Assembly (NCBI GenBank): GCA_963785725.1
Contig: CAWAWS010000016.1
Span: 128,001-192,000 of the forward strand
Direction: 5' to 3'
Source of the DNA: an uncultured delta proteobacterium
Lineage (GTDB): Bacteria > Myxococcota_A > Polyangia > Palsa-1104
DNA: 64,000 bases
Part shown: positions 58,580-64,000 of the stretch, piece by piece
How the letters are laid out: each line of letters starts with the position of its first letter
Numbering within the stretch: position 1 is the first letter of the stretch
The notes under the pieces: model-generated
Database searches by the model: none
What the model was told of the DNA's origin: nothing
Seen by the model: only the letters and a program-made list of their open reading frames with translations
Translations under genes and position numbers: made by a program

Positions 58580-58885
58580 ATGGCGTACTACTGCTGGAGC
58601 TGCGGGAACGAGCAAATCTTCGACGTCAAAGTCGGCGTCAAGGTCGGTCGCCGCGACTCGTGCCCGCACTGCGCGGCCGATCTGCATGTCTGTAAAAACT
58701 GTCGTCTTTGGGATCCGAGCATCCACAACCAGTGCCGCGAGCCCGAGGCTGCCTTCATCCGCGATCGCCAGGAGTCGAACTTCTGCGCGCACTTCGATTT
58801 CCGCGATGGCGACAGCCCGACCGCCGACAAAGGCGTCGAGAGCGCGAAGGCCAAGCTCAACGACCTCTTCAAGAACCTGAAGTGA
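58580..58885 (+). CDS. Small Cys-rich putative zinc-binding protein
   Basis: CWSC, CPHC, CKNC, QC..NFC. Confidence 0.75.
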   Translation: MAYYCWSCGNEQIFDVKVGVKVGRRDSCPHCAADLHVCKNCRLWDPSIHNQCREPEAAFIRDRQESNFCAHFDFRDGDSPTADKGVESAKAKLNDLFKNLK

Positions 58886-58901: not shown

Positions 58902-59236
58902 ATGATCGAGCTCGACGACGACTTCGACGCGGCCACGCGCGAGCTGTGCCCGGACGGCAACTGCACCGGCGTGCTCGCCGCCGACGGCGTGTGCAAAGTG
59001 TGCGGCGCCCGCGGCGTCGTGCCGGCGGGCACGCGCGCCGACGCGCCCGACGTGCCGCGCCGGAAGCGCCGCAAACGAAAGAAGCGAGCGCGAACGACGA
59101 CGCCGCCGACTTTTTGGCCACGCGCGGCGACGCGGCGTTCGACGACGAGAACCGCGAGCTGTGCCCCGACGGCAACTGCATCGGCGTGCTCGACGCGGAC
59201 GGCCGCTGCAAAGTCTGCGGACGCACGATTACCTAG
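58902..59236 (+). CDS. Small protein with two RELCPDGNC..CKVCG repeats, frameshift ~59050
   Basis: The same four-Cys module appears in two reading frames. Confidence 0.7.
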
Positions 59237-59259
59237 CTTTCTCGACGGCAAATCGGCTT

Positions 59260-59311
59260 CTTGACAAATTCAGTCAAGTATCAAATAACAAACTTGACTA
59301 ATTCAGTAGAC
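59260..59311 (+). promoter_or_regulatory. Two tandem Rrf2-type operator boxes
   Basis: CTTGACAAATTCAGTCAAG (59260-59278) and CTTGACTAATTCAGTAGAC (59293-59311). Confidence 0.75.
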
Positions 59312-59316
59312 AACCC

Positions 59317-59772
59317 GTGAAGCTGTCGACGAAGACACGATATGGCGTGCGCGCGGTGTTCGACATCGCCTACCACAACGCCGGCCGGCCGACGCAGGCG
59401 CGCGACATCGCGCGCCGGCAGGACGTGCCGTTGCGCTATCTCGAGCAGATCTTTCAGGAGCTGCGGCGCGCCAACCTCGTCGACGCCAAGCGCGGTCCGA
59501 AAGGCGGCTACTTTTTGTCGCGCACGCCGGAGTCGATCACGCTCGGCGACGTCGTCCGCGCCGTGCAAGGGCCGATCGAGCTGCTCGCGTCCGACGACGA
59601 AGCCGGCGACGGCGTGCGCACGTCGAAGCAGGTGCCGGCCGACATCTGGCGTGAGCTGGCGACGAAGATCTCCGGCGTCTTCGACTCGGTGACCATCCGC
59701 GATCTGTGTCAGCGCGGCGAAGCGCTCGGCATTCATCGCGGCGACGGTCAGCCGCACATGTACTTCATTTGA
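59317..59772 (+). CDS. Rrf2-family regulator, CymR-like
   Basis: STKTRYGVRA, YLEQIF..RGPKGGY; no three-Cys cluster motif; ends MYFI. Confidence 0.9.
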   Translation: MKLSTKTRYGVRAVFDIAYHNAGRPTQARDIARRQDVPLRYLEQIFQELRRANLVDAKRGPKGGYFLSRTPESITLGDVVRAVQGPIELLASDDEAGDGVRTSKQVPADIWRELATKISGVFDSVTIRDLCQRGEALGIHRGDGQPHMYFI

Positions 59773-59820: not shown

Positions 59821-60767
<947 letters not shown>

Positions 60768-60771
<4 letters not shown>

Positions 60772-61454
60772 ACGCGGCCGCTCCACGCGTGCTCGTCGTC
60801 GGCGCGGGCGGGCTCGGCTGCCCTGCCCTCTTGGCGTTGGCGCCGGCGATCGCCGCGCGCGGCGGGCTCCTCGGCGTCATCGACGACGATCGCGTGGAGC
60901 TGTCGAACCTGAATCGCCAGATCCTGCATCGCACCGAAGACGTGGGGCGTGACAAGGCGAAATCGGTAGAGGACGGGCTCTTGCGGCGCCATCCGAGGCT
61001 GCGGGTGGACGCGATCGTGGCCCGCGTCGACGCCGCGAACGCCGACACGATCGTGCGCCGGTGGGACGTCGTCGTCGACGGCAGCGACTCGTTCGCGTCC
61101 AAGTTTCTGCTCAACGACGCCTGCGTGCGCGCCAATGTGCCGCTCGTGCATGGCGGCGTCGTGCGGCTGACAGGGCAGCTCATGTCGATCGTGCGCGGCT
61201 CGGCTTGTTATCGCTGCCTGTTCGAGGCGCCGCCGCCGGCGGGCATGGCGCCGTCGTGCTCGGAGGCCGGCGTCGTCGGCGCGTTCGCCGGCATCGTCGG
61301 CGCGCTGCAGGCCAAAGAGGCGCTCGCCATCGTCGCAGGCGCGCCCGAGCTGGCCGGCACACTGCTCGTCGTCGACGGCCGCAGCGACGAGCGCCGCCGC
61401 GTCCGTATTCGTCCGCGTCCCGGCTGCGAAGCTCATTTGCGAGAGGTCGCCTGA
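60768..61454 (+). CDS. ThiF/MoeB-family adenylyltransferase lacking the N-terminal RYSRQ segment
   Basis: [34 protein letters not shown]. Confidence 0.9.
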
Positions 61455-62681
61455 TGTCGTTCGTGCAAGCGCTGCAGTGCAAAGAGTGCAAGACCCAATA
61501 TCCGAAGCAGGCGCTGCACGTCTGCGAGAACTGCTTCGGTCCGCTCGAGGTCGCTTACGACTACGCGGCCATCGGCAAAGCGCTGACGCGCGAGACGATC
61601 ATGTCGCGGGCGCCGAACCTGTGGCGCTATCGCGAGCTCCTGCCGCTCGACGCGCCGCCGACGGTGGGGTTGAACGCCGGCTACACGCCTTTGGTGCGCG
61701 CCAAGCGGCTCGGCGACGCGCTCGGCCTCAGCGACTTGTGGGTCAAGAACGACGCCGTGTCGCATCCGACGCTGTCGTTCAAAGATCGCGTCGTCTCGGT
61801 GGCGCTGTCGAAGGCCAAGGAGCTCGGCTTCGACACCGTGGCCTGCGCGTCGACGGGCAACCTCGGCAACTCGACGGCGGCGCACGCGGCGCAAGCGGGG
61901 CTGCGCTGCTACGTGCTGATCCCGCACGATCTCGAGGCCGGCAAAGTGCTGGGCACGCAAATCTACGCGCCGCATCTGGTGCGCATCGACGGCACCTACG
62001 ACGACGTCAATCGGCTGTGCTCGGAGATCGCCGATCGGCATCCGTGGGCGTTCGTGAACGTCAACATTCGCCCCTATTACGCCGAGGGCTCGAAGACCTA
62101 CGGCTACGAGATCCAGGAGCAGCTCGGCTGGCGCACGCCGGCGCACGTCGTCGTGCCGATGGCGTCGGGCTCGCTGCTCACGAAGATCGGTCGCGCCATC
62201 GACGAATTCACCAAGCTCGGGCTCGTCGACGCGCGCGGCACGACCAAGCTGCACGGCGCGCAGGCGGCCGGCTGCGGACCCATCGCCGAGGCGGTGCTGG
62301 CGAATCGCGAGGCCATCAAGCCGGTCAAGAAGCCGAACACGATCGCCAAGTCGCTTGGCCATCGGCAATCCGGCCGACGGGCCGTACGCGGCGCACGCGA
62401 TTCTGACGTCGGGCGGCAGCGCGGCCGCGGTCAGCGACGCCGAGATCATCGAGGGCATTCAGCTGTTGGCGGCGACCGAGGGCCTCTTCACCGAGACCGC
62501 CGGCGGCGTGACCGTGGCGACGGCGAAGAAGCTGGCGGCGGCGGGCAAGATCGGACGCGACGAGACGACCGTCATCTGCATCACGGGCAACGGCCTGAAG
62601 ACGCAGGAGCCGCTCGTGGACGCGCTGCCGCTGCCGCTGCCGATCGCGGCCCGGCTCGACGAGTTCGAGAAGATTCTTTAG
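61454..62681 (+). CDS. thrC: Threonine synthase-like PLP enzyme, single frameshift ~62355
   Basis: Read from DNA: CKEC..CENC, LWRYRELLP, SFKDR, CASTGNL, EGSKT; continues AIGNPADG..ITGNGLKT. Confidence 0.85.
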
Positions 62682-62726
62682 TACGTACGATAGCAACGGA
62701 CACAAAAGCTCCATAGGAGACGAACC

Positions 62727-62999
62727 ATGGCCACCGTGCGAATCCCGACGCCGCTGCGCAAGCTGACCGGCGGCAACGAAGAAGTCACCGTCGCGGCGAA
62801 GAGCGTGGGCGAGCTGATCGCCGTGCTCGAGCAGCAGCATCCCGGCATCAAAGAGCGCATCTGCGACGAGACCGGCGCCGTGCGTCGCTTCGTCAACATC
62901 TTCGTCAAGGACGAGGACATTCGCTTTCTGCAGAACCTCGACACGCCGCTCGGCGAGAAGGACGAAGTCTCGATCGTCCCGGCGATCGCCGGCGGCTGA
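62727..62999 (+). CDS. Ubiquitin-like sulfur carrier (MoaD/ThiS/CysO family)
   Basis: VRIPTPLR..RRFVNIFV..EDIRF..PAIAGG C-terminal Gly-Gly. Confidence 0.93.
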   Translation: MATVRIPTPLRKLTGGNEEVTVAAKSVGELIAVLEQQHPGIKERICDETGAVRRFVNIFVKDEDIRFLQNLDTPLGEKDEVSIVPAIAGG

Positions 63000-63358
63000 T
63001 GGCGCGTTTCAGCGACGAGGAAGTGCGCCGTTATAGTCGGCAGATCGTGCTGCCGGAGGTGGGTGGCACGGGCCAAGAGCAGCTGCGCGCGGCGACGATC
63101 GCGGCCACGACCGAGACGGCGGCGCTGTACTTGGCCGCAGCGGGCGTCGGCACGATCCGCGTGCCGTCGCCGGGCTGGGCCGAGGCGGCGCGCGCGCTCA
63201 ATCCGCTCGTGACCGTCCTCGTCGACGAATCGGTGGCGACCGAGGCCGAAGACGTCGAAGTCGGTGCGCTCTCGGCGTGGCGCGCGATCAAAGAGGCGCT
63301 GTCGACGGCGTTCCCCGCGGCAGGCGCAAGCGCTGCGGGCGCGAGGACGGCAACGTGA
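62999..63358 (+). CDS. Short degenerate ThiF/MoeB-like protein
   Basis: RYSRQIVLPEVGGTGQEQL, LYLAAAGVG, ALNP; no GxGxxG, SNLxRQ or CxxC. Confidence 0.8.
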   Translation: MARFSDEEVRRYSRQIVLPEVGGTGQEQLRAATIAATTETAALYLAAAGVGTIRVPSPGWAEAARALNPLVTVLVDESVATEAEDVEVGALSAWRAIKEALSTAFPAAGASAAGARTAT

Positions 63359-64000
63359 GCGACTCCGCAGGCGCGCCGCCGTCGACCGCGCTCGAACGGG
63401 CGCAGCAGAAGGGCTCGATCGTCGATCTCATCGGCGGCACGCCGCTCATTCGCCTGCGCAAGCTCGAGCCGCGCGCCGGCGTCGAGCTCTGGGCCAAGTG
63501 CGAGTTCGCCAACCCGGGCGGCTCGGTCAAAGATCGCGCCGCGCTGCAGATGATCCAGGACGGCATCGCGTCCGGCGCGCTCACCTACGACAAGACGATC
63601 ATCGACTCCACGAGCGGCAACACCGGCGTCGCCTACTCGCTCGTCGGCGCCGCGCTCGGCTATCGCGTGACCTTGGTCATGCCGGCCAACGTCTCGGCGG
63701 CGCGCAAGCAGATCACGGCCGCCTACGGCACCGAGCTCATCTACTCGTCGGAGCTCGAAGGATCGGACGGCGCCATCGTGCTCGTGCGCCAGCTCGTGGC
63801 CGAGCATCCCGAGCGTTACTACTATCCCGATCAGTATTCGAACGAGTCCAATCCGCGCGCGCATTATCTCGGCACCGGGCGCGAGATCTGGGAGCAGACG
63901 AGCGGTCGCGTGACGCATTTCGTGGCCGGCTTGGGCACGACGGGCACGATCATGGGCACCGGCCGGCGGCTCAAGGAGCACGATCGGCGCGTGCAGATCG
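63355..64000 (+). CDS. Second PLP-dependent cysteine synthase (CysM-like), 3'-truncated by the window
   Basis: Read from [44 protein letters not shown] overlap. Confidence 0.9.
   Translation, partial: MSDSAGAPPSTALERAQQKGSIVDLIGGTPLIRLRKLEPRAGVELWAKCEFANPGGSVKDRAALQMIQDGIASGALTYDKTIIDSTSGNTGVAYSLVGAALGYRVTLVMPANVSAARKQITAAYGTELIYSSELEGSDGAIVLVRQLVAEHPERYYYPDQYSNESNPRAHYLGTGREIWEQTSGRVTHFVAGLGTTGTIMGTGRRLKEHDRRVQI

Follow-up and report, generated by a model that had tools for sequence, protein, structure and literature searches.

What becomes of an enzyme of the MoeB/ThiF type when the two parts that each of its chains would ordinarily contain are encoded by separate genes? The question is raised by a 64,000-nucleotide (nt) stretch of DNA from an uncultured delta proteobacterium of the class Polyangia (GenBank GCA_963785725.1, contig CAWAWS010000016.1, positions 128,001 to 192,000), referred to here, as a whole, as the window. 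An operon at its far end includes two partial genes: a long one (60768–61454, + strand) with catalytic motifs but without the N-terminal RYxRQ segment, or 'head', and a short one (62999–63358, +) with the head but without the catalytic motifs. The gene for a small sulfur carrier lies between them. An earlier note on this DNA proposed that the two proteins form an obligate heterodimer. We consider it probable, at roughly 78%, that they do form a heterodimer, with one active site, one active subunit and one inactive subunit; for 'obligate', as a general claim, we see no support.

The long protein comprises 228 amino acids (aa). By fold and by family profile it belongs to the ThiF/MoeB/E1-like superfamily, and its motifs are all in place: GAGGLG (aa 12–17), SNLNRQ (46–51), DGSD (104–107), CYRC (147–150) and SCSEAG (163–168). 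In profile alignments, G15, R50, K63 and D107 fall at G41, R73, K86 and D130 of MoeB, residues whose roles are described in PMC12355090. The crossover-loop cysteine is C164, and it is separated from CYRC by 13 residues, as in MoeB. The predicted zinc site is C147/C150/C220/H223; its second pair is C220-x2-H223 rather than CxxC. The final histidine (CEAH, window 61425–61436) is also found in congeners, and in relatives the residue is mostly Cys. The Pfam ThiF match begins only at position 22 of the 238-position model, so the head is missing. Starting instead from an in-frame GTG at 60723, within cysK, would extend the protein by just 15 residues and would bring in no RYxRQ, and in none of the 18 long genes checked do the 300 nt upstream contain a RYxRQ-like word in any frame of the same strand. 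The protein scores under every NCBIfam equivalog cut-off listed for MoeB, ThiF, MoeZ and UbaA (TIGR02356, for example: 185 vs 275), and it has no rhodanese domain, Pfam reporting ThiF only. In a Myxococcales bacterium, one locus contains a long gene 73% identical to this one.

The short protein, 119 aa long, is a candidate miniature inactive adenylation subunit, with about 103 folded residues and an Ala-rich tail. It contains RYSRQ (aa 11–15; 63029–63043), GQ, LYLAAAGVG and LNP, as the earlier note had read them, and it covers just the first ~55 positions of MoeB models, with a Pfam match (E 0.022) that lies under the cut-off. Aligned by profile to PDB 1zud, its R14 (63038–63040) occupies the position of ThiF Arg11, the residue named as the arginine finger in PMC13139853. 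It is more than a head segment, however: besides helix A (YLAAAG, 63128–63145) it keeps a C-terminal core helix (aa 86–102; 63254–63304), missed at first, that aligns with the ThiF helix GTLQALEAIKLLSG and is present in the predicted fold, which is a confident one. In databases, short genes have no Pfam domain and are labelled 'hypothetical' or ordinary adenylyltransferases, and so are easily missed. A protein 88% identical to the window's short one comes from a Polyangia bacterium, and dozens of ~101-aa relatives are present among metagenome proteins. Overall, short proteins have lengths of about 85 to more than 240 aa and a mean identity of 37%. Those of one family (f11: L047, L048, L055, L057, L058, L061 and L102) are 200–245 aa in length and have a CPH...ECFxC cysteine pattern, possibly the remnant of a zinc site and an intermediate stage of decay. 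One short gene (L016:3438-4370, −) has a long in-frame low-complexity insertion, made up of Gly/Val and Asp/Ser/Thr runs, that separates helix A from the last helix, and in another (L059:3717-4055, −, onward) the short domain is fused to an unrelated C-terminal region of ~420 aa.

The division of motifs between the two proteins is not peculiar to the window. In a set of 25 full-length proteins, 110 positions are conserved at a level of 84% or more. With 60% taken as the threshold for retention, and the domains of six fusions included, long proteins alone preserve 54 of these positions and short proteins alone 13; another 5 persist in both, and 38 in neither. The finger arginine is present in 77/77 short proteins, from 19 families, and in 0/89 long ones; the tyrosine of YLAAAG, found in all 25 full-length proteins, is retained by 87% of the 77 short proteins and by none of the 89 long. 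NLxRQ and CxRC occur in 88 and 89, respectively, of the 89 long proteins and in 0/77 short ones, and equivalents of the catalytic G41, R73, K86 and D130 are absent from short proteins. In homodimeric MoeB and ThiF, the RYxRQ head is on the same chain as the catalytic core; here it is not. The motif split is that of canonical E1s, instead, with one inactive and one active adenylation domain and the arginine on the inactive one.

Do the two genes travel together? They were sought in 41 genomes—the window's own and 40 others of the same order, all of them kin—using the short protein and an alignment of long proteins as queries, and the loci were read. Both genes are present in 25, neither in 16, and one without the other in none. 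(G002, among these 25, has frameshifts throughout and was excluded from alignments.) In 15 of the 16 genomes with neither, both queries match a single full-length MoeB, and in the remaining one they match nothing. Five genomes of one genus have the long gene on a different contig from the carrier and short genes, and retain both. The searches were widened to 151 genomes of the class (with part of the matches listed) and 111 of the phylum; reading of selected loci among the matches listed showed the split pair or a fusion in 14 families within the class and in five belonging to other classes. Of the 90 genomes from outside the class, 15 contain both parts (13 read, two by coordinates), and one is ambiguous. 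Selection points the same way. The ratio of nonsynonymous to synonymous substitution rates (dN/dS), obtained by a simple counting method on GC-rich DNA, is 0.20–0.83 for the short gene in 13 of 13 pairs picked for closeness, indicating purifying selection, and 0.14–0.49 for the long gene in the nine pairs for which both genes were available. Both genes are intact, with no net frame-breaking indel relative to two congeners, and the recurrence of the two forms in relatives shows that neither is an assembly error. The division into long and short is real, conserved and under selection; the two checks that the earlier note had proposed, co-occurrence and dN/dS of the short gene, both came out in its favor.

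Nature has also joined the two proteins. Six long/short fusions were found, in both domain orders, all sited away from carrier, cysM and JAB genes, and in four genomes with a fused gene there is no other MoeB-type match. The predicted fold of one fusion, from a class other than the window's and with only four alignment rows over its short domain, suggests a pseudo-dimer. Joinings of other kinds occur, too. In L011:4387-5373 (+), L014:1734-2735 (−) and L056, the reading frame of the long gene continues into the carrier gene, whose own ATG is retained; ThiF and ThiS were confirmed in the L011 protein. In family f37 (L130-L132, L134, L136, L138 and L140), the short domain is at the N-terminus of a JAB-type peptidase in all seven loci read.

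From the complementary motifs, the co-occurrence, the selection, the fusions and the predicted folds, we infer the following. An ancestral homodimeric MoeB-type gene would have duplicated, and the copies would have split the work. The long protein would bind ATP-Mg, zinc and the carrier, and adenylate the carrier's Gly-Gly end. The short protein, inactive and only ~100 residues in size, would take the place of the second protomer, one to one, packing onto the long protein by way of helix A and the last core helix, covering the dimer face, and supplying R14 in trans to the single ATP site. The carrier adenylate would then be sulfurated, probably via C164 with persulfide from a donor such as TusA or a rhodanese-MoeB encoded elsewhere, and the CysM-like enzyme and JAB peptidase would convert the thiocarboxylate to cysteine, as in the mycobacterial CysO route. 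Residues follow Gly-Gly in 45 of 75 carriers, which implies that these have to be trimmed. Most likely, the short subunit stabilizes and speeds the enzyme without being strictly needed in every lineage.

Several observations weigh against this heterodimer, and the first come from a family, f12, that appears to manage without the short gene. All 19 genomes sampled (89–97% complete) contain a second long-type match. Twelve of these genes were read, and all encode headless proteins that retain the catalytic and zinc residues; ten lie in the order cysK-long-carrier-cysM-JAB, without room for a short gene, and the other two adjoin JAB alone. A profile of 56 short proteins found nothing in the 19 genomes, and gave a match in all five control genomes (E 1e-27 to 7e-14). 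Two residues have gone from the long proteins of this family, the Ala after helix A's Leu (0/12 vs 79%) and the Glu of the last helix (0/12 vs 48%), although this may be drift because the proteins form one clade. That clade is nested among partnered long proteins, with FastTree support of 0.96 and weak IQ-TREE support (68). Because of this family, we conclude that a headless long protein can persist without a short one, as a homodimer or together with full-length MoeB, which is present in 19/19 of these genomes. Such persistence fits with reports on other enzymes: MoeB and ThiF are described as able to do without the arginine finger, the cost of R59A in yeast Tcd1 was only 26% (PMC13139853), and UBA3 is reported to activate NEDD8 without APPBP1, at a slower rate (PMC6031683). 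'Obligate' is weakened on both counts. The remaining objections are of a different kind. The 16 genomes with neither gene may lack the whole operon, in which case their shared absence says nothing particular about these two genes. The correlation of long with short distances (rho 0.48) is no stronger than that seen for other operon genes (0.45–0.57). The fusion that was folded has the distant origin and thin alignment mentioned above, AlphaFold has already seen this architecture, and the position of the fusions in trees is unstable. Finally, the full-length rhodanese-MoeB encoded elsewhere in the window's genome, on contig C6, could itself activate the carrier or partner the long protein.

What else might the two proteins be? 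The long one could be a headless homodimer, like TcdA, which lacks the finger (PMC13139853), and the short one could have a separate role in the pathway, such as holding the carrier or recruiting JAB or CysM. The f12 loci, the short domain's attachment to JAB in f37, and the five genomes in which the short gene adjoins the carrier while the long is elsewhere all suit this idea, as does the dispensability of the finger. It gives no reason why precisely those elements that the long protein has lost or shares, namely the head, helix A and core helix, should be retained by the short one, why six fusions of the two occur away from carrier, cysM and JAB, or why one of them should appear to fold as a pseudo-dimer, and we regard it as unlikely. 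Less likely still is that the long protein borrows the head of the full-length rhodanese-MoeB, with the short protein a competing or regulatory subunit that tunes the choice of partner. Full-length paralogues are on hand in the window's genome and throughout f12, and such a partnership could explain how f12 tolerates loss of the short gene and would supply the rhodanese missing from the operon; in four genomes, however, a fused gene is the sole MoeB-type match, and an invariant R14 suits a catalytic helper better than an inhibitor. That the short gene is simply the decaying remnant of a duplication, without present function, is very improbable and has largely been refuted already. Its variable length, low mean identity and loss from one family are what decay might produce, but dN/dS of 0.20–0.83 in every pair, an arginine that never varies across 19 families, intact and translationally coupled frames, a confident fold and dozens of metagenome relatives are not. 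The one-site heterodimer is the reading we prefer.

The surroundings of the pair are those of a cysteine operon, a single co-directional one (all +). It begins with an Rrf2-family regulator (IscR/CymR-like; 59317–59772; Pfam PF02082, E 4e-36; TIGR00738, above cut-off) and cysteine synthase A (CysK; 59821–60771; TIGR01139, 423 bits, above cut-off). The long gene follows, and then a threonine-synthase-like (thrC-like) pyridoxal-phosphate enzyme (61454–62681), recognized by family profiles and by comparison with congeners; it had escaped the original description, which named the carrier as lying between the long and short genes. The carrier (62727–62999), of the ThiS/MoaD/SAMP1 type, is 90 aa in length and ends in AIAGG (PF02597, E 2e-15; NF041918, 54.8 bits vs a cut-off of 60). 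After the short gene comes a CysM-like cysteine synthase (63355–64000, continuing to 64326 past the window's end; best family TIGR01138, 355 bits vs a cut-off of 394). Overlaps of ATGA, TGATG, TGATG and GTGA at four gene junctions bear out the translational coupling originally claimed. Past the window are a JAB peptidase gene, a ~200-aa open reading frame (ORF), TusA and LarE; carrier, E1-like enzyme, cysteine synthase and JAB peptidase are all in the operon, with JAB frameshifted in this assembly. Single-base insertions interrupt the thrC-like gene (~62355) and the JAB gene (~64466 and ~64560 in window numbering; L030), and because both genes are intact in two congeners these are probably assembly errors. 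The ~200-aa ORF (L030:6759-7364, between JAB and TusA) is common to congeners and matches nothing in Pfam or NCBIfam. Upstream of the operon, at 58902–59264, two overlapping frames each contain one copy of a repeated RELCPDGNC..G..C..CG motif that has no Pfam match, which suggests a single two-repeat zinc-finger gene split by a frameshift. A small Cys-rich ORF (CxxC...CxxC...CxNC; 58581–58885) after an EF-P-like gene, likewise without a Pfam match, is perhaps a zinc ribbon.

Bacterial enzymes of the MoeB/ThiF type are described as homodimers, with single-chain BilD the exception (PMC10557695, a 2023 preprint; PMC12355090). A search of the main text of openly available full-text papers turned up no description of a bacterial E1-like enzyme with its active and inactive parts on two genes, and the excerpts of PMC11354881, PMC5654768 and PMC12250964 at hand do not mention such a pair. 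If a two-gene version does operate in a metabolic operon, then protein conjugation is not needed for the inactive/active split of the ubiquitin, SUMO and NEDD8 E1s to arise. The phylum offers a natural series—split pair, fusion in both orders, short subunit lost—and this, with an inactive subunit of only ~100 residues, makes the roles of the inactive domain and the arginine finger directly testable. Since one phylum holds a split pair resembling SAE1-SAE2, an inactive–active fusion resembling UBA1 and BilD, and the reverse fusion, it is tempting to see the pair as a living relative of the step to canonical E1s, in which an asymmetric E1 came out of sulfur transfer before there was a Cys domain or an E2, perhaps by descent shared with BilD or eukaryotic E1s. 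We are doubtful of this; independent origin is more likely than shared descent.

How, then, does the pair compare with systems already known? Escherichia coli MoeB and ThiF, and Uba4, are homodimers with two sites, and with head and core on every chain (PDB 1jw9, 1zud, 6yub), whereas in the window two genes divide head and core between them, which would leave one site. The lending of an arginine has precedent: Uba4 receives Arg18 from its second subunit (PMC7527816), and the inactive domain of BilD provides Arg9 in like manner (PMC10557695). BilD is a single chain, however, with a ~80-aa helical Cys domain and an E2 partner, and performs protein conjugation in phage defense (PDB 8tz0, 8tyz); the window has two genes in a cysteine operon, with no Cys domain, and with no E2 in the operon. 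SAE1-SAE2 and NAE1-UBA3 are likewise two genes, one inactive and one active, and the long protein finds SAE2 and UBA3 while the short profile finds SAE1 and NAE1. The differences are that the window pair has neither Cys half-domains nor a ubiquitin-fold domain, and that its inactive subunit is ~100 aa rather than 350–530 aa. The long protein has no separate Cys domain in its crossover loop, nor space in its 228 aa for an extra domain, and the operon genes scanned include no E2, a genome-wide search for E2 not having been made. Judged from its sequences, the pair would work like the adenylation core of a canonical E1 without being a canonical E1. Yeast Tcd1-Tcd2 is a comparable heterodimer of duplicated ThiF folds, in which an active copy is stabilized by an inactive one that also lends an arginine finger, itself non-essential (PMC13139853), but it is a eukaryotic system that acts on tRNA and has two full-size chains. 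In its company of genes, the pair resembles the mycobacterial CysO/CysM/Mec+/MoeZR route, where CysM and JAB release cysteine (PMC3227635), and operon type 4c of PMC1779556, with a carrier, an E1-like enzyme, a CysM-like synthase and a JAB peptidase brought together. The E1s of the carrier-E1-JAB-cysteine synthase operons in PMC1779556 are fused to rhodanese, and the excerpted text makes no mention of a heterodimer. The mycobacterial E1 is one full-length chain joined to rhodanese; in the window the E1 is split and lacks rhodanese, and the operon adds TusA, LarE, cysK and a thrC-like gene, instead.
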